This document shows, piece by piece, positions 2,854 through 33,074 of a DNA stretch of 33,447 nucleotides (position 1 is the first letter of the stretch; each line of letters begins with the position of its first letter). The DNA comes from a virus (taxonomy: Duplodnaviria; Heunggongvirae; Uroviricota; Caudoviricetes). The stretch lies in IMG/VR virus record IMGVR_UViG_2734482556_000012; one strand, written 5' to 3'. The notes under the pieces were generated by a model that made no database searches, was not told the DNA's origin, and worked only from the letters and a program-made list of their open reading frames with translations. The position numbers and the translations under genes are program-made.

Positions 2854-3576
2854 TCACTTTCCTTTGATGCGAATGCCAGCGGCACGGGAATCATTCCATC
2901 GCTTTACTTCTTCACGAATTACGTCAATGCATTCTTTCGAATCCATTAGGTAATCTTCATCAAAAAGCCTTTCCTGTTCGTTTTCTATCGCAACAATGAT
3001 TGCTTCAACTAACTTTTGTGCCTGAGAACCACTTTCTAACTCTGCAATGCGCTTCTCTGCGGCTTCCAGCTTCTCGCGCATATCGTCAACGTACTCGACC
3101 AGAGATCCGCCAGCAGGAATTTCGCACTCCTCGACCAGTTGGAAGTAGATATCAGCTGCGGCCCGTGTGTTGCTATGCCTAGCGTCGCCCATCTCACCTT
3201 CACGAAGAGCATCGCGTTCGGCGGTAAGATTGGCTATTTTGCTGTCTTTGCCTTCAAGCTCAACGCGCAGCTTCCCTACCGTTAGCGCAATATCCTCGTT
3301 CTCCTGGTCACGGCGTTTGATGTATTGCTGGTTTCTTTCCCGTTCATCCAGCAGCGCCTGCACTACTTCAGGGTTGAAAGCTGCGATATAACGAGCGTTG
3401 TTCTCTGCGTTGTTCTGTCCATCAAAGCCGGTCCATTTGATAACGTCTTCACATCGTTTATCACCAGGTGTATGCACCGCATATGTACCAGTACCAGACG
3501 AAATAAATGCGACCCATTCACCCTGTGTTGCCAGTTGCGCCGCTTTACGCAGTGCCTGATAGTCAATCTTGCTCAC
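2854..3576 (-). CDS. Ead/Ea22-like coiled-coil protein
   Basis: Long heptad-rich acidic region; GTG start 3576 preceded by AAGGAGG and overlapping upstream stop (GTGA). Confidence 0.45.
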   Translation of the reverse strand: MSKIDYQALRKAAQLATQGEWVAFISSGTGTYAVHTPGDKRCEDVIKWTGFDGQNNAENNARYIAAFNPEVVQALLDERERNQQYIKRRDQENEDIALTVGKLRVELEGKDSKIANLTAERDALREGEMGDARHSNTRAAADIYFQLVEECEIPAGGSLVEYVDDMREKLEAAEKRIAELESGSQAQKLVEAIIVAIENEQERLFDEDYLMDSKECIDVIREEVKRWNDSRAAGIRIKGK

Positions 3577-3812
3577 TGGTTGCCTCCTTTGCGGATCTGC
3601 GCTGCGATGCACGAAAAAAAAGACTCCCGCGTATGACTGTTAAGAGCTGGCGCGAACGCTGCGTTAAGAACGGCAGCATCACAGCCGTCATCGATATAGA
3701 GCGCAATTTTTTTCTCCAGGCGTGCTTTGGCTTCCTGCAACTGCATACCCCGGCACGCACGTGGGATATACTCAGCAATTTGAGCGATAGATTTTTCGTT
3801 CTGTTTAAACAT
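3573..3812 (-). CDS. hypothetical protein (79 aa)
   Basis: ORF with GAGGTG RBS; start overlaps stop of the upstream gene. Confidence 0.4.
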   Translation of the reverse strand: MFKQNEKSIAQIAEYIPRACRGMQLQEAKARLEKKIALYIDDGCDAAVLNAAFAPALNSHTRESFFSCIAAQIRKGGNQ

Positions 3813-6939: not shown

Positions 6940-7614
6940 TTAGGCCTTTATTTTGTATCTTCTTGGTTTTCCTGAGAAAATTACTGTACCAATTATAGAG
7001 CAATTACCGTTAATCTTAATGTAAGGCTCAGGCCAGTTTGGGTTTAATGCTTTGAGATAACGCTGTGTTCCATCTTCTATCAATCGCTTGAAGGTGGTTT
7101 CGCCTGTATCGTGCATCAATGCAATAACGTCGTCACCGTGGCAGGCAGGGACTTCGGGATCAACAAAAATCATGTCTCCCGGGCGGTACTCATCAATCAT
7201 TGAATCACCAATCACCCGCAAGATATAAGTCATTTCGCCACAGGGTACAGGGCAGGGATAAGTTTCTGCTGTGCTCAAATCAACCTCAGAATAGCCAACT
7301 TCTTTCCATGCTCCGGCCTGTACCCATGATATGACAGGGACTAACGTTATTTGTTTGTTAGTGATTGAAACATCAGGTTTTTTTGTGATGTTCGTGGTCT
7401 GGTGTTCTTGATCAAGCCATCCGACAGGCAGGTCGAAACATTTTTCGATGTGCCGTGCCATGCTGTCACCGATATTTTTAGTAGCACCATCTCCCATAAA
7501 CCTGCTGGTCTGGGTTGGCTCGCGATCAATCATGGTGGCAAAGGAAGAATTCCCGCCAACACCATCTCTCAGTTTTCTGGCGTTAGACCGCCGGATGTCA
7601 TGGACTGTTTTCAT
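6940..7614 (-). CDS. cI: CI-type prophage repressor (N-terminal DNA-binding domain + S24 LexA-like peptidase domain)
   Basis: C-terminal half aligns by eye with lambda CI (VISWVQAGAW Ala-Gly site, GDSM Ser, FKRLIEDG...LNPNWP Lys); no RBS before ATG 7614, suggesting a leaderless mRNA. Confidence 0.85.
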   Translation of the reverse strand: MKTVHDIRRSNARKLRDGVGGNSSFATMIDREPTQTSRFMGDGATKNIGDSMARHIEKCFDLPVGWLDQEHQTTNITKKPDVSITNKQITLVPVISWVQAGAWKEVGYSEVDLSTAETYPCPVPCGEMTYILRVIGDSMIDEYRPGDMIFVDPEVPACHGDDVIALMHDTGETTFKRLIEDGTQRYLKALNPNWPEPYIKINGNCSIIGTVIFSGKPRRYKIKA

Positions 7615-7630
7615 AAAGAAATTAAAACCT

Positions 7631-7649
7631 TTGTACCGATAAGGTACAA
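7631..7649. promoter_or_regulatory. 19-bp inverted repeat TTGTACC-GATAA-GGTACAA, candidate oR operator
   Basis: Perfect 7-bp arms between the divergent cI and cro starts; overlaps candidate pRM -35 (minus strand 7649-7644, -10 at 7626-7621). Confidence 0.45.
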
Positions 7650-7654
7650 GTATC

Positions 7655-7682
7655 TTGAAGGTTCATATTAATCATGTAATAT
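7655..7682 (+). promoter_or_regulatory. candidate pR promoter (-35 TTGAAG, -10 TAATAT)
   Basis: Hexamers at 7655-7660 and 7677-7682, 16-bp spacer, about 20 nt upstream of the cro RBS. Confidence 0.3.
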
Positions 7683-7704
7683 GTATATCGGAGGTACATA
7701 TTGT

Positions 7705-7905
7705 ATGAAAGCGTATTGGGACTCTTTAACCAAAGAACAGCAGGGCGAGTTGGCCGGAAAAGTTGGCTCAACACCAGGCTACTTACGGCTGGTTTTCAAT
7801 GGTTATAAAAAGGCCAGTTTTGTGCTGGCTAAAAAACTTGAGCAATGCACGTCAGGTGCAATTACGAAATCTGACTTAAGACCGGATATCTATCCGAAAG
7901 ATTAA
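7705..7905 (+). CDS. cro: Cro-like small HTH regulator
   Basis: 66-aa ORF divergent from cI; GGAGG RBS 9 nt upstream of ATG 7705; HTH-like segment. Confidence 0.55.
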   Translation: MKAYWDSLTKEQQGELAGKVGSTPGYLRLVFNGYKKASFVLAKKLEQCTSGAITKSDLRPDIYPKD

Positions 7906-7936
7906 CAGAACACCTTCAATTTTTAACCACAGAACG

Positions 7937-8500
7937 ATGAGGCTAACCGTGGGTAAGCATCACTGGAAAGTAGAAAAACAGCCTGAGTGGTACGTGAAAG
8001 CTGTGAGAAAAACTATCGCGGCGTTGCCGGGGGGGTACGCTGAAGCTGCTGAGTGGCTGGATGTAACAGAGAACGCTTTATTCAATCGCCTTCGTGCAGA
8101 TGGCGATCAGATTTTCCCGCTGGGATGGGCAATGATTTTACAGCGCGCGGCTGGCACTCACTACATTGCGGATGCTGTCGCACAGTCTGCTGGTGGAGTG
8201 TTTGTATCGCTTCCTGAAATTGAGGAAGTAGAGAACGCCGATATAAACCAGCGCCTGCTGGAAGTCATCGAACAGATCGGGAGTTACTCAAAGCAGATTC
8301 GTTCGGCAATCGAAGATGGGGTAGTGGAGCCACACGAGCAGACAGCAATTAATGATGAGTTGTATCTGTCAATTTCGAAGCTCCAGGAGCATGCAGCACT
8401 GGTCTACAAAATCTTTTGCGCTCCAGAAAAGAGTGACGCCCGCGAGTGTGCAGCTCCGGGCGTCGTGGCGTTTTGTGTCTGTGGAGAAACTAACGCATGA
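7937..8500 (+). CDS. CII-like regulatory protein (HTH + coiled coil; YdaT/CII position)
   Basis: Position directly after cro; N-terminal HTH-like segment and C-terminal heptad region; start 7937 or GTG 7949. Confidence 0.35.
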   Translation: MRLTVGKHHWKVEKQPEWYVKAVRKTIAALPGGYAEAAEWLDVTENALFNRLRADGDQIFPLGWAMILQRAAGTHYIADAVAQSAGGVFVSLPEIEEVENADINQRLLEVIEQIGSYSKQIRSAIEDGVVEPHEQTAINDELYLSISKLQEHAALVYKIFCAPEKSDARECAAPGVVAFCVCGETNA

Positions 8501-9333
8501 ACAGTTTAACGGCAAATAACCGTTTGTCGCAACAGCTGGTGGTCAGTGTCGCTGAACACCTGTTGTTACGGCATGAATGCAGATTACCAAATCACCTGGC
8601 TGTAAGTAACCACAGAGAACTTTACCTGACTGTGGGGGGCGAGTTGTGCAGGAACTTAACCGCTGGTTTCGTGACGGAAGAGGGCTTTATGTCCATGTTA
8701 TTCGTTGGGAGCCAGAAACACAGCGCGTTATCTATCTTCGCAAAGACTACCCGCATGAGTGCTTTAGTCCTTTGTGGAAATTCAGGCGTGATTTTGTTGA
8801 GTGTGAAGGACCACCAGCACATTGATTCTGCCATTCCGGGACGTTACACTGTTCAGGCACCTTATAAAGCGGGTGCCGGGATTGGCGTCCTGGAAATGTT
8901 ATCGGCGATATATGACGCGCCAGCGTCTTTTTTATCGTTTGCGTCTGTGCACACCCAAATTATGGTGGGCTGGACGGGGGCACCGAAAGGTGCGCCGGTT
9001 TCCGATAACGCCGGTTACGCCAACCCCGTTCAGTTCACCACCAGCGAAATTGGCGTTTCCGGTGGTGAAGGTAATTCACTGTTATCGGAGGCTGCCATCA
9101 TGGCTACTGTCCCAGCCCTCACTCGTCTGAATGATGAAGACTTACATAAACTCAGTTATGTAACAACTGCACTACGTGCTCTGCGCAAGGTAACTCTTTC
9201 GGATCCGCAGGCGCATCAGGTTCTGGTAGAAACCCTTCTTAACTTGCAGGCTGAACGTATTCGTCTGGCGGATAAGGCTAATTTTCATATTCACCGTCTC
9301 CTGAATATCAGCGGAGGGCATCGTCATGCTTAA
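8497..9333 (+). CDS. hypothetical protein; reading frame of the 5' third uncertain
   Basis: Only long ORF here, ATGA-coupled at both ends; a second protein-like frame is open over 8610-8825. Confidence 0.35.
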   Translation: MNSLTANNRLSQQLVVSVAEHLLLRHECRLPNHLAVSNHRELYLTVGGELCRNLTAGFVTEEGFMSMLFVGSQKHSALSIFAKTTRMSALVLCGNSGVILLSVKDHQHIDSAIPGRYTVQAPYKAGAGIGVLEMLSAIYDAPASFLSFASVHTQIMVGWTGAPKGAPVSDNAGYANPVQFTTSEIGVSGGEGNSLLSEAAIMATVPALTRLNDEDLHKLSYVTTALRALRKVTLSDPQAHQVLVETLLNLQAERIRLADKANFHIHRLLNISGGHRHA

Positions 9334-9562
9334 TCCGTTGATCCTCAACATTTACCGTTTATTTCAGCGTAAAAAAACATCAATTCCTACAGTTGGGCAG
9401 TGGTACACCACGCCTGCAGGGCATGTTCTACGTGTTAGCCTGGTTGACCGTGAATGTCAGAAGGTGATTTGTGAACCGCTGGGCCGTAATTACCGCGTCA
9501 GTATGCCGCTTATAGCCTTTCGCTCCGGAAAAAACATGAAGCATCTCGGAGGTGCAGCATGA
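9326..9562 (+). CDS. hypothetical small protein (78 aa)
   Basis: GGAGGG RBS 7 nt upstream; start and stop overlap neighbours. Confidence 0.45.
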   Translation: MLNPLILNIYRLFQRKKTSIPTVGQWYTTPAGHVLRVSLVDRECQKVICEPLGRNYRVSMPLIAFRSGKNMKHLGGAA

Positions 9563-10377
9563 GTATGGAGCTGATGGTTAAAGCGATGAAAATTCGAGTG
9601 GGTAATCCATTGCGAAAACTGGTTCTGATCAAGCTGGCTGATAATGCCAGCGATCAGGGTGAGTGCTGGCCCAGCTACCAGCATATTGCTGACCAGTGCG
9701 AGATTAGCAAACGTTCTGTGATGAATCATATTGCGGTCCTTTGTGAGTCCGGGCTGGTAAAAAAAGTCACCCGGAAAGGTGAAAAAGGTAACTCAAGTAA
9801 TATCTATCTCCTTCATCTGGATGGTGCAGGAGATTCACTAGGGGGTAGTGCAAATAATTCACTATCTGGTGCAGCAAATTCACCAGGTAGTGCAGGAGTT
9901 GCACCAGGGGGTAGTGCAGGAGATTCACCCAGAACCAGTCACTCTTTTGAACCAGTCAAAGAACCAGTCAATGAACCAATAGCTGTTGGTGCATCTGCTG
10001 ATGAGTCTGTGCGAGTTCGTTCAAACCGACCGGAATACTCTCCGGAGTTTGAGCAGGCATGGCTGGCATACCCCAAACGTGCTGGTGGCAATTCAAAATC
10101 AGCAGCCTTCAAAGCCTGGAAAGCCCGTTTGAATGAGGGGGTAAACCCCGAAACCATGCTGGAAGGTGTGAAACGCTACTCGTGCTGGGTATCTGCGATG
10201 GGTAACAGCGGCACACAATTTGTGAAACAGGCTGTCACGTTCTTTGGTCCGGATCGTCATTTCGAAGAATCCTGGGAAGTTCCTGCGGTATCTGCAGCCA
10301 GACGCGAGGACCCGTACTTCAAAGCCAGTTACGACAACGTGGACTACAGCCAGATCCCGGCAGGATTCAGGGGGTGA
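9559..10377 (+). CDS. replication initiation protein (O-like; N-terminal wHTH, repeat-encoded Gly/Ser/Ala linker, conserved C-terminal domain)
   Basis: N-terminal HTH block (QHIADQCEISKRSVMNHIAVL); low-complexity linker encoded by iteron-like repeats, as in lambda O; GGAGGTG RBS. Confidence 0.6.
   Translation: MSMELMVKAMKIRVGNPLRKLVLIKLADNASDQGECWPSYQHIADQCEISKRSVMNHIAVLCESGLVKKVTRKGEKGNSSNIYLLHLDGAGDSLGGSANNSLSGAANSPGSAGVAPGGSAGDSPRTSHSFEPVKEPVNEPIAVGASADESVRVRSNRPEYSPEFEQAWLAYPKRAGGNSKSAAFKAWKARLNEGVNPETMLEGVKRYSCWVSAMGNSGTQFVKQAVTFFGPDRHFEESWEVPAVSAARREDPYFKASYDNVDYSQIPAGFRG
9823..9928. repeat. five iteron-like ~16-bp direct repeats (consensus rGTGCAnnAnnTTCAC) at 21-24-bp spacing; candidate replication origin
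   Basis: Copies at 9823-9838, 9847-9862, 9868-9883, 9889-9904, 9913-9928; further GAACCAGTCA repeats at 9931-9975. Confidence 0.5.
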
Positions 10378-10379
10378 TT

Positions 10380-10868
10380 ATGAGTCTTTTGAATGAAGTT
10401 CAGAAATTCATTGAAGCCCATCCGGGGTGTACTTCCGGAGACATTGCGGATGCTTTTGCAGGTTACTCACGGCAGCGCGTTCTGCAGTCAGCAAGCAAGT
10501 TACGTCAGAGTGGGCGTGTGGATCACCGTTGTGAAGGAGATACACGCAGACATTTCCCGCGCCTGACTGAGAGAGCGCAGGAACCGGAACCACAACCAGT
10601 TCGAGAAACCAGACCTGTGCGCAATTTCTATGTCGGCACTAACGATCCCCGTGTGATTTTGTGCCTGACCCGCCAGGCTGAAGAACTGGAGTCCAGGGGC
10701 TTATACCGTCGTGCTGCAACGGTGTGGATGGCGGCATTCCGAGAAAGCCACTCCCAGCCAGAACGAAACAATTTTCTGGCGCGTCGTGAGCAGTGCTTAC
10801 GGAAAAGCAGCAAGCGAGCTGTATCGGGTGATGAGTGGTATCTGTCAGGGAATTACGTGGGGGCTTAA
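10380..10868 (+). CDS. PerC-like transcriptional regulator with extra N-terminal domain
   Basis: C-terminal AEELESRGLYRRAATVWM...RREQCLRK resembles the PerC/Pch signature (recalled); ATG 10380 preferred over GTG 10374. Confidence 0.4.
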   Translation: MSLLNEVQKFIEAHPGCTSGDIADAFAGYSRQRVLQSASKLRQSGRVDHRCEGDTRRHFPRLTERAQEPEPQPVRETRPVRNFYVGTNDPRVILCLTRQAEELESRGLYRRAATVWMAAFRESHSQPERNNFLARREQCLRKSSKRAVSGDEWYLSGNYVGA

Positions 10869-32381: not shown

Positions 32382-33074
32382 TGCAGAATATCCGACAGGA
32401 AACACTGAATGAATGCACCCGTGCGGAGCAGTCTGCCAGCGTGGTGCTCTGGGAAATCGATCTGACAGAGGTCGGCGGAGATCGTTATTTCTTCTGTAAT
32501 GAGCAGAACGAAAAAGGTGAACCAGTCACCTGGCAGGGGCGGCANNNNNNNNNNNNNNNNNNNNNNNNNNNNNNNNNNNNNNNNNNNNNNNNNNNNNNNN
32601 NNNNNNNNNNNNNNNNNNNNNNNNNNNNNNNNNNNNNNNNNNNNNNNNNNNNNNNNNNNNNNNNNNNNNNNNNNNNNNNNNNNNNNNNNNNNNNNNNNNN
32701 NNNNNNNNNNNNNNNNNNNNNNNNNNNNNNNNNNNNNNNNNNNNNNNNNNNNNNNNNNNNNNNNNNNNNNNNNNNNNNNNNNNNNNNNNNNNNNCAGCGA
32801 ACTGAGCGCGGTGAGCGCCTCTTTTGTACTGTCCACGCCGACGGAAACGGATGGCGCTGTTTTTCCGGGGCGCATCATGCTGGCCAACACCTGTACCTGG
32901 ACCTATCGCGGTGATGAGTGCGGTTATAGCGGTCCGGCTGTCGCGGATGAATATGACCAGCCGACGTCCGATATCACGAAAGATAAATGCAGTAAATGCC
33001 TGAGTGGCTGTAAGTTTCGCAATAATGTCGGCAACTTTGGCGGCTTCCTTTCCATTAACAAACTTTCGCAGTAA
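32381..33074 (+). CDS. L: minor tail protein L, interrupted by a 250-N assembly gap
   Basis: N-terminus (MQNIRQETLNECTRAEQSASVVLWEIDLTEVGG) and C-terminus (...KCSKCLSGCKFRNNVGNFGGFLSINKLSQ) match lambda L either side of the gap; span not a multiple of 3, so the gap size is nominal. Confidence 0.8.
32545..32794. other. assembly gap (250 N)
   Basis: Uninterrupted N run; technical, not biological. Confidence 0.98.

Follow-up and report, generated by a model that had tools for sequence, protein, structure and literature searches.

IMG/VR virus record IMGVR_UViG_2734482556_000012 (Caudoviricetes), a stretch of 33,447 nucleotides (nt) that we refer to as the window, includes the immunity region of an SfV/2H10/e14-like lambdoid Escherichia coli prophage and, in the early-right operon of that prophage, an open reading frame (ORF) of 278 amino acids (aa) at positions 8497 to 9333. 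Our analysis indicates that this ORF is probably a ymfM-like frame, coupled to the upstream ymfL gene, in which a DUF4222 gene is embedded out of frame and which continues, in the manner of the eta gene of the satellite P4, across an RNA immunity module as far as the stop codon of a nested 77-aa ORF. This reading is carried by the gene identities, the conserved start codon and Shine-Dalgarno (SD) element of DUF4222, the avoidance of stop codons in the overlying frame, the matches to RNA families, and the covariation of RNA target sites, all of which emerged from comparisons of sequences.

A preliminary description of the window had drawn attention to the atypical N-terminal third of the 278-aa ORF, to a protein-like alternative frame within it, and to a run of six G residues (G6) where the two frames meet, and had offered a homopolymer sequencing error, a genuine frameshift site, or two overlapping genes as explanations. 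The ORF and the G6 run are present as described, and Pfam has no match in residues 1 to 116 of the ORF, a Phage_ASH match covering residues 117 to 210. Our results agree with the explanation by overlapping genes, in that DUF4222 has a start codon and SD element of its own and the long frame is kept open across it. In what follows, frame 0 is the frame of the 278-aa ORF, and loci of the window type are also called type D, to distinguish them from the e14-type, type-B, and type-C loci with which they were compared. The coordinates of all features are collected in Table 1.

Evidence for DUF4222 as an independently initiated gene

The alternative frame is open from 8610 to 8825, and GTG 8646 is its only start codon, as had been noted. 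It encodes a peptide (...RVVQELNRWF...PPAH) that matched Pfam family DUF4222 (PF13973) with 50.4 bits against a cut-off of 27 (E = 1.6e-13) and phrog_1343 over its full length (residues 1 to 59 of 59, E = 1.1e-36). DUF4222-annotated protein clusters are likewise mostly 59 aa long, and the NCBI Prokaryotic Genome Annotation Pipeline (PGAP) calls the gene in relatives as coding sequence WP_001341559.1; NCBIfam held no family for any of the three peptides searched.

When the locus was aligned with its relatives, the alternative-frame peptide proved to be conserved across lineages together with its start codon and an SD-like run. A homologous start codon lies 1 or 2 residues before the R-x-LNRWF motif across phages and 34 species-level genomes, and among 27 distinct ymfL-clade sequences the DUF4222 start is ATG in 22, GTG in 4, and TTG in 1. 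All lineages compared have an SD-like purine or G run 5 to 9 nt upstream of this start (AAGGAG in e14 and SfII, GGCGGAGA in Klebsiella, GAAGGGG in mEp390, GCGGAGG in Morganella, and GGGGGG in the window and phiNP). The G6 run of the window, which a 6-nt spacer separates from GTG 8646, aligns with the AAGGAG of e14, and its predicted duplex with the anti-SD sequence has an energy of −9.3 kcal/mol, compared with −10 to −10.8 kcal/mol for neighboring genuine starts.

The ratio of nonsynonymous to synonymous polymorphism (pN/pS) in the DUF4222 frame was 0.15 to 0.26, which indicates purifying selection, and 11 of the 17 polymorphic sites in window-type DUF4222 fall at third codon positions. An AlphaFold model made from a 17-sequence alignment, with a predicted local distance difference test score (pLDDT) of 85, shows a small beta-barrel like those of SH3, Tudor, and KOW domains, with generic structural neighbors only. 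In distant phages (Yersinia YeP2, Serratia BZS1, Morganella, and Fraca), a free-standing DUF4222 gene lies directly upstream of the replication gene. Because of the Pfam score, the conserved start codon and SD-like run, the low pN/pS, the confident fold, and the free-standing distant homologues, these comparisons support DUF4222 as a real gene that is independently initiated at GTG 8646, with G6 as its putative SD element.

We also considered a conserved ancestral fusion of the upstream N-terminus with DUF4222 and rejected it after alignment. The "fusions" found in the databases switch frame at differing places, at the G run in one protein (P0001), further downstream in three (P0002, P0003, and P0004), and by way of e14-specific indels in two (P0044 and P0046), and are scattered indels. 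Two others (P0022 and P0058) are fused in frame, yet they retain an SD element and a start codon ahead of the DUF4222 domain.

Two other open frames were seen at DUF4222 genes. On the minus strand of the window, a 70-aa antisense ORF (8622 to 8834) shadows DUF4222 and looks like a chance or shadow ORF. In the more distant DUF4222 genes of Providencia and Erwinia, the +1-offset frame has no stop codon or one terminal stop codon, and the open stretch begins only about 15 to 30 nt upstream of the DUF4222 start; this may reflect either an overlapping ORF of the same extent or base composition.

Length and role of the G6 run

In frame 0, the G6 run also contributes to Val-Gly-Gly codons, and no other G or C run of at least 6 nt occurs between 8100 and 9600. 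A second homopolymer, a G7 run at 8029 to 8035 inside ymfL, is longer. When the 1-kb stretch from 8400 to 9400 was used as a query, more than 3,000 complete E. coli records matched, 441 of them covering at least 80% of it. For a census of run length, a 70-nt probe around G6 was compared with 5,426 complete E. coli genomes, about 18% of which carry the region. Exact G6 was found in 844 records, exact G7 in 1, G7 with a neighboring single-nucleotide polymorphism (SNP) in 5, and exact G5 in none. Since 844 exact G6 records stand against about six with G7 and none with G5, G6 is the normal, genuine state of the sequence and not a sequencing error. Among 86 close loci, 79 have G6 (with the spacer CGAGTT), 3 have G7, 1 has an interrupted run (GGGTGG), and 2 have other single-base deletions nearby. 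The phage genomes SfV, 2H10, cdtI, and mEp460 have G6 as well.

The suspicion of an error, under which the true sequence would be G7 and the true gene a 109-aa fusion, can draw on the proneness of homopolymers to error, on the existence of G7 records, and on a gap of N residues elsewhere in the assembly. Such a gap does exist (250 N between scaffolds at 32545 to 32794) and marks the source as a draft assembly. However, the G6 records are complete genomes from many platforms, and a seventh G would break the conserved continuity of frame 0. We give this explanation almost no credence. One extra G does fuse the two frames, as had been predicted: the 109-aa ORF is present exactly in natural G7 alleles, where PGAP still calls the 59-aa GTG gene. 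In these alleles, frame-0 translation would end at 8825, just before the RNA module, and they are therefore probably either errors or inactivating variants.

A G run that changes in length might also act as a slipped-strand phase-variation switch, with read-through on in G6 and a fusion protein made and read-through off in G7. G7 is found on at least two backgrounds (strain 720632, with a Rha-type gene downstream; the 2014C-3011 group, with Ash and the neighboring SNP; and IMG/VR locus L122), and further single-base indels are concentrated no more than 15 nt away from the run. Yet G7 is rare (about 0.6% of complete genomes), runs of six or seven G residues are short for efficient slippage, and the indels could be errors of PacBio-era or draft assemblies. 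The run is, moreover, interrupted (GGGTGG) or shortened (G5A) in healthy relatives. A switch of this kind is very unlikely.

The other explanation that relies on the run, programmed −1 frameshifting at G_GGG_GGC (8634 to 8640), would yield the 109-aa fusion of the N-terminus with DUF4222 beside the frame-0 product. The heptamer formally fits the pattern X XXY YYZ in frame 0, DUF4222 occupies the −1 frame at every ymfL-clade locus, and the fused ORF exists in G7 alleles. What is conserved, however, is the start codon with its SD-like element and not the G run or the slippery heptamer: the e14-type, type-B, and type-C loci lack a G run where they align with it, and no X XXY YYZ was seen near the junction in those e14-type and type-B sequences that were read. 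In Salmonella ST64B, 118970_sal3, Citrobacter braakii, and one IMG/VR variant, the DUF4222 frame has a stop codon between the G run and the GTG, so that slippage there cannot yield a fusion, and the "fused" database proteins, as described above, switch frame at various places. The proposal of a genuine frameshift site is therefore highly improbable.

Selection for openness in the overlying frame

Over the first 52 codons of DUF4222, the ymfM frame has no stop codon in any of the 27 distinct ymfL-clade sequences, and the other alternative frame has 0 to 10. About 2 stop codons would be expected under E. coli codon usage, the chance of finding none being 0.02 to 0.19 per sequence. In a GTDB scan of the ymfL clade, the identity of DUF4222 to that of the window reaches down to 47%. 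The openness is reflected in the choice of synonymous codons. Val, Leu, and Ile codons are at risk where a synonym with A or G as its third base would put TGA, TAA, or TAG into the ymfM frame. The third base is T or C in all 124 such codons, whereas it is A or G in 38 of 122 safe codons (for example, 17 of 25 Leu codons at column 31 are CTG, and 8 of 27 codons at column 29 are ATA; Fisher's test, 8e-14, with the kinship of the sequences ignored). Turnover between T and C is still ongoing at the at-risk sites. Outgroup DUF4222 genes without an upstream ORF provide a control: there, the stop codons of the corresponding frame sit at exactly the homologous L-N and V-I dicodons.

The relation between the two frames is also kept, DUF4222 being always at offset 2 from the upstream ATG despite distances of 17, 143, 149, 167, 176, or 179 nt. 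In the e14-type, type-B, and type-C loci, the ORF has a common end point within the SD of the following gene (TAG or TAA and then AGG, 9 nt ahead of the next ATG), as is normal where genes are coupled. Its nonoverlapping N-terminal part had a pN/pS of 0.34 in type B (1.2 to 1.3 in the other frames) and 0.45 in type C. Within the overlap, the pN/pS of the ymfM frame was 0.9 to 2.6, which shows that it is unconstrained at the amino acid level. Judged by these comparisons, the host frame is selected for openness across DUF4222, and its sequence in the overlap is free.

In the window, the nonoverlapping segment (8497 to 8645) has frame 0 as its sole open frame and is homologous to the N-termini of type B, of which the window-type N-terminus is a diverged relative. 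About 73 of 79 close relatives have an intact long ORF, the C-termini of which are of at least six kinds. Among 48 polymorphisms within the window's own type, none creates a stop codon, about 2 being expected by a rough estimate; these are too few for a test of stop avoidance.

Since selection maintains its openness and its design is the known one of P4 eta, the 278-aa ORF is probably translated and not an accident of annotation. The preliminary description had called it possibly chimeric. It is indeed composite, in that a ymfM-like N-terminus is followed first by the shadow frame of DUF4222 and then by a frame across RNA genes, but selection keeps the composite open.

A regulatory RNA module within the long frame

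Downstream of DUF4222, the long frame runs across two RNA family matches, an isrK/seqA-like RNA (Rfam RF01394, 63.7 bits against a gathering score of 50) and a C4/CI-like antisense RNA (RF01695, 82.8 bits against a gathering score of 45, over the full length of the model, positions 1 to 87). An independent terminator scan placed an intrinsic terminator, a hairpin followed by a T run, at the 3' end of the isrK match, and the predicted fold of the C4-like RNA has a 17-bp closing stem and two hairpins (minimum free energy, −47.8 kcal/mol). Both RNAs are found at the same offset in every type-D relative, with either "Ash" or "Ash+Rha" as the downstream gene, and Rfam found neither isrK nor C4 in the e14-type, type-B, type-C, or outgroup loci. 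An Rfam match to mir-3116 (21.9 bits against a gathering score of 65) was discarded as spurious. A promoter-like element read from the sequence (TTGATT as the −35 and TACACT as the −10, 17 nt apart) ends 6 nt before the isrK match, its −35 overlapping the DUF4222 stop codon. All type-D variants retain the element, which lines up with TTGCCT-17-TATAGT upstream of P4 seqA.

The two loops of the C4-like RNA (a' and b') are complementary to sites on either side of it, b1 and a1 within the isrK-like RNA and b2 and a2 downstream, the links being formed by complementary blocks I3, I7, I4, and I5. The downstream sites are inverted-repeat blocks I4 and I5, and a2 overlaps the GGAGG that precedes ATG 9100. 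The "a" sites, given in the order a1, C4 loop, and a2, are GTTATCGG, CCGATAAC, and GTTATCGGAGG in the window; CACCAAAG, CTTTGGTG, and CACCAAAGAGG in O157 PV15-279; GCACATG, CATGTGC, and GCACATGAGG in C. braakii; and TTCACAGG, CCTGTGAA, and TTCACAGGAGG in P4. Thus, a1, a', and a2 covary three ways in four specificity variants, P4 included, and b1, b', and b2 do likewise. The duplex energies of whole isrK and C4 RNAs barely beat those of shuffled sequences (z of about −2); it was the discrete blocks and their covariation that proved informative.

Across the RNA module, the long-ORF frame has no stop codon in seven variants that are 51 to 99% identical there (P4 included), and the remaining two frames have 0 to 4 and 4 to 6. 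A 102-aa ORF with a TTG start in the +1 frame (8822 to 9130) is free of stop codons in the window and in Stx2_12E129, has 2 to 4 in the other variants, and looks like a chance or shadow ORF.

Two side observations concern the relation of the module to the proteins around it. The Phage_ASH Pfam domain nearly coincides with the stretch from seqA/isrK over CI/C4 to seqC, both in the window (8845 to 9126) and in P4 (8330 to 8704, minus strand), and among its shared motifs, YDAP coincides with the terminator, QIMVxW with the 5' end of C4, and EAAIMAT with the SD-ATG; much of the amino acid conservation of Phage_ASH may be driven by the RNA. Near-identical ymfL-DUF4222 modules have a mosaic breakpoint at about 8885, inside the isrK-like RNA, and the same upstream module is joined to at least four immunity RNA specificities and at least six C-terminal variants (Ash, 278 aa; Ash+Rha, 382 to 387 aa).

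Internal start codons and the nested 77-aa ORF

The nested 77-aa ORF begins at ATG 9100, has its frame and stop codon in common with the long ORF, and occupies the position of P4 Kil and Gifsy-1 AnrP. Its start is preceded by the SD GGAGG (9087 to 9091; predicted duplex, −9.5 kcal/mol), and the arrangement GGAGG-N8-ATG is conserved. The motif GGAGGCTGCCATCATGGCTAC is kept from the window to P4, where the equivalent Met gives a product of 65 aa. The 77-aa product has no Pfam match and no Rha domain. In Rha-type relatives (e.g., O157 PV15-279), the ATG equivalent to 9100 begins a Phage_pRha protein.

Other internal starts have less to recommend them. The separate downstream gene that had been suggested to begin at ATG 8896 would start inside the isrK-like RNA with a weak SD (−4.9 kcal/mol), and ATG 9100 is the better candidate. 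ATG 8962 occupies the position of the first AUG of Gifsy-1 orf45 (+106 from the isrK 5' end). It is hidden within the C4 stem and has no SD (+0.9 kcal/mol); translation from it would yield 123 aa, with a match to phrog_4908. The starts that annotators have chosen for "Ash" (8755, 8788, and 8803) have nearly no SD (−0.9 to −3.3 kcal/mol).

A model for expression of the locus

We propose that translation of DUF4222 begins at GTG 8646, with the G6 run serving as SD element, and that the frame-0 ORF, coupled to the ymfL stop codon through an ATGA overlap at ATG 8497, is translated through DUF4222. In phages of this type, the ymfM-like frame has no stop codon of its own and runs on over the promoter-like element, the isrK-like RNA, the C4-like RNA, and the target sites. 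By analogy with P4, we infer the activity of the internal promoter, the use of the individual start codons, and a role of frame-0 translation in anti-termination. In a lysogen, only the internal promoter would fire, yielding the isrK-like and C4-like RNAs, and the latter would pair with a2 and b2 over the SD of ATG 9100 and thereby silence the nested ORF and the genes downstream. After induction, transcripts from pR would carry frame-0 ribosomes from ymfL through the terminator hairpin and the RNA target sites, and this translation would render expression from pR insensitive to the RNA immunity.

Several points weigh against this model. The internal promoter candidate matches the consensus at 8 of 12 positions; a sigma-70 consensus scan of 7600 to 9700, which requires 9, did not flag it and found no promoter. 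The +1 frame is also free of stop codons across the module in the window, so openness alone is weak evidence there, and the statistics of stop avoidance ignore phylogeny. The window-type N-terminus (49 codons) is weakly constrained, with 12 synonymous and 18 nonsynonymous variants and no codon periodicity; its pN/pS of 0.73 comes from a single pair and is uninformative. What matters about frame 0 may therefore be that it is translated, irrespective of the protein made, or the open frame of the window may in part be a legacy of its ancestry. In most close relatives, the long ORF is not among the genes called by PGAP, and the eta-like design is not universal, orf45 of Gifsy-1 being separate and out of frame (PMC4825925).

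Some of these points would also suit a simpler arrangement of the kind that PGAP annotates, in which only DUF4222 and a separately initiated Ash or 77-aa gene are real and the 278-aa frame upstream of about 8788 is accidental and untranslated. Near-identical genomes are indeed annotated with DUF4222 and an "ash family protein" starting at 8788 or 8755, and frame 0 is unconstrained in the overlap and little constrained in the window-type N-terminus. An accidental frame is, however, difficult to reconcile with stop avoidance at synonymous sites that disappears in the outgroup, with a frame relation kept despite indels, and with an N-terminus under purifying selection in types B and C. The long ORF, moreover, starts in ATGA coupling to ymfL, whereas the annotated starts are almost devoid of an SD, and P4 eta provides a characterized precedent for a read-through ORF (PMC10111431). 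We consider the simpler arrangement unlikely and favor an embedded DUF4222 gene within a continuous, ymfL-coupled frame.

Implications for annotation and for YmfM

Public annotation of these loci is contradictory. SfV orf37 and many "Rha family" calls correspond to the long ORF, whereas PGAP gives DUF4222 and ash. Long-ORF proteins of 278 to 383 aa are labeled as transcriptional regulator, antirepressor, or Rha, and the "ash family protein" has been given at least four different starts. Identical e14 DNA is annotated with ymfM and without DUF4222 in curated MG1655 (NC_000913.3) and with DUF4222 and without ymfM by PGAP in NZ_CP032667.1; in about 2,000 other E. coli genomes, PGAP calls DUF4222 and no ymfM. 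The model proposed here would reconcile this recurring conflict within one consistent scheme. Its components, namely, DUF4222, ymfM, the isrK and C4 families, and P4 eta/kil, are all known, but their stacking and the overlap of ymfM with DUF4222 appear not to have been described; our literature searches found no paper describing the ymfM/DUF4222 overlap.

Three layers of information would thus be stacked in one stretch of prophage DNA: DUF4222, the open frame that overlies it, and a regulatory RNA module. The first two offer a natural case of selection at synonymous sites holding an overlapping frame open, with an outgroup control built in. The third means that common lambdoid prophages carry, in their early-right operon, an RNA immunity module of the P4 type that comes in several covarying specificities.

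The overlap also bears on ymfM of K-12, the long-sought sfiC inhibitor, which shares its 3' half with a better-conserved gene in another frame. YmfM/SfiC has been described as a cell division inhibitor encoded by e14 that acts on Z-ring formation (Ansari et al., bioRxiv 10.1101/2020.11.19.390815). In that work, division inhibition was tested with K-12 fragments encoding both frames: the library clone consisted of ymfL', ymfM, and ymfN', pBAD-ymfM carries "the ORF" and with it the DUF4222 SD, its TTG start, and 53 of its 59 codons, and the ymfM deletion removes both frames (10.1101/2020.11.19.390815). The published experiments do not separate the two. Of the products of the locus, DUF4222 alone shows amino acid conservation. 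It is conceivable, although we hold this only as a tentative and rather doubtful proposal, that the division inhibition ascribed to YmfM is due wholly or partly to the embedded DUF4222 beta-barrel and that the sfiC/ymfM locus is obligately dual coding. The ymfM frame would then be mainly a translated conduit, recruited in SfV-type phages as the 5' part of an eta-like read-through ORF by which RNA immunity is bypassed.

Locus context and other features

The long ORF follows ymfL, which encodes a CII/CP76-like early regulator (Pfam Phage_CP76; NCBIfam phage_reg_YmfL, 169 bits; "protein YmfL" according to PGAP in relatives), and precedes a 78-aa ORF and the replication gene.

Table 1. Positions of genes, RNAs, and sequence elements at the ymfL-DUF4222-RNA module locus of the window
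Feature	Position	Strand	Remarks
ymfK	6940-7614	minus	LexA-family repressor
ymfT		plus	cro-like; before ymfL
ymfL	7937-8500	plus	early regulator
Long frame-0 ORF	8497-9333	plus	278 aa; ATG overlaps ymfL stop as ATGA
ymfM-like N-terminal segment	8497-8645	plus	not overlapped by DUF4222
G6 run	8634-8639	plus	putative SD of GTG 8646
DUF4222	8646-8825	plus	59 aa; −1 frame inside long ORF
Promoter-like element	8822-8850	plus	TTGATT-17-TACACT
isrK/seqA-like RNA	8857-8933	plus	RF01394
Upstream target site b1	8877-8888	plus	within isrK; complementary to C4 loop
Upstream target site a1	8898-8905	plus	within isrK; complementary to C4 loop
Intrinsic terminator hairpin	8914-8927	plus	followed by T run
C4/CI-like antisense RNA	8958-9045	plus	RF01695
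In-frame ATG, orf45 position	8962-8964	plus	in C4 stem
C4 loop a'	9001-9009	plus
C4 loop b'	9011-9028	plus
Downstream target site b2	9050-9062	plus	inverted-repeat block
Downstream target site a2	9081-9089	plus	inverted-repeat block; overlaps SD
Nested in-frame ORF	9100-9333	plus	77 aa
78-aa ORF	9326-9562	plus
Replication gene	9559-10377	plus

At the 3' end of the ymfL coding region (8435 to 8464) we noticed a strong inverted repeat, GACGCCCG...CGGGCGTC, with a predicted energy of about −20 to −24 kcal/mol on either strand and followed on both strands by T-rich runs, GTGGCGTTTTGTG on the plus strand and CACTCTTTTCT on the minus strand. The repeat may be an antisense or bidirectional terminator, its position being reminiscent of that of the lambda oop terminator at the end of cII. 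Beyond the replication gene, a PerC-family (yfdN-like) gene (10374 to 10868) is an intact 164-aa ORF in the window and is "frameshifted" according to PGAP in the 99.6% identical strain A10.

Comparison with known systems

The closest parallel is the eta/kil region of P4. As summarized in PMC10111431 from Forti et al. (1999), full-length Eta is made only from an upstream promoter, its translation is coupled to that of the preceding gene and prevents termination, and read-through allows a truncated form, Kil, to be translated. On the minus strand of P4, we found that the ATG of ORF199 (eta) overlaps the stop codon of ORF88 (vis) and that ORF199 contains both RNA matches, seqA to the isrK model (8615 to 8692, 60.8 bits) and CI to the C4 model (8420 to 8507, 74.9 bits). 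Phage_ASH covers residues 22 to 146 of ORF199, and the sequence ...QEAAIMATT... is followed by 65 residues before the stop codon. The long ORF of the window is likewise coupled to an upstream stop codon, spans a promoter-like element and RNAs of the seqA and CI types, and has Phage_ASH over the RNA stretch with a conserved EAAIMAT motif; the downstream target overlaps the GGAGG-N8-ATG of a nested short ORF whose stop codon is that of the long ORF. The two differ in that P4 is a satellite with Vis/AlpA as the upstream partner, whereas the window is a lambdoid prophage in which that partner is ymfL (CII-like). The window ORF has about 110 extra 5' codons, which are ymfM-like and contain the out-of-frame DUF4222; the isrK-C4 spacing is 24 nt, compared with 107 nt in P4; and the nested 77-aa product is unrelated to Kil in sequence.

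In the isrK locus of Gifsy-1, the first AUG of orf45 is at +107 (PMC4825925), and orf45 is a separate 45-codon ORF whose stop codon overlaps the anrP AUG (AUGA) (Hershko-Shalev et al. 2016, PMC4825925). The window resembles this locus in having an isrK match with an intrinsic terminator, an ATG (8962) at the orf45 position, an SD and ATG at the anrP position, and a C4-like RNA region downstream (processed as STnc1160 in Gifsy-1); its relatives carry a Rha-type antirepressor at the anrP position. Unlike in Gifsy-1, the starts at 8497, 8962, and 9100 are all in one frame with no stop codon between 8962 and 9100, the C-terminal product has no Rha domain, and the locus follows ymfL in the early-right operon, whereas that of Gifsy-1 lies downstream of antQ.

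In e14, ymfM (b1148; NC_000913.3, 1203822 to 1204180) encodes 112 aa, and its 3' half is read out of the DUF4222 frame. The e14 DUF4222 ORF, which has a TTG start (3502 to 3681 in K-12 locus L004), lies at offset 2 within ymfM, extends 20 nt beyond the ymfM stop codon, and overlaps the next ATG. The long ORF of the window shares with ymfM its place directly after ymfL with an ATGA overlap, a start of the form MNSLT..., and the DUF4222 gene embedded at offset 2. The likeness is partial in that phrog_1170 matches residues 48 to 98 of the window ORF only, the part within the overlap (E = 2e-9); Pfam has nothing for ymfM-type ORFs. The 112-codon e14 ORF stops inside the SD of the next gene, whereas the window frame runs to 9333, and the 47 N-terminal residues of the window are distantly related, aligning weakly through type B.

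The immI operon of P1 and P7 has a c4 RNA with a1/b1 and a2/b2 sites, icd, and ant. There, as in the window, two loops of a C4-family RNA are complementary to paired upstream and downstream sites. The downstream site covers the ribosome-binding site of a small ORF, which in turn leads into a gene at the antirepressor position. The Rfam c4-a1b1 model, however, scores 21.4 bits on the window against a gathering score of 46.7 (44.1 on P4), no icd or Ant homolog was detected, and the a1/b1 region of the window is a terminated RNA of the isrK type.

Rz and Rz1 of lambda are an embedded, out-of-frame pair of phage genes. As in that pair, a small gene with an SD and start codon of its own lies wholly or mostly within another gene, in a different frame and on the same strand. 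At the ymfM-like locus, in contrast, the embedded gene is the one conserved at the amino acid level, and its host frame is conserved mainly as an open one.

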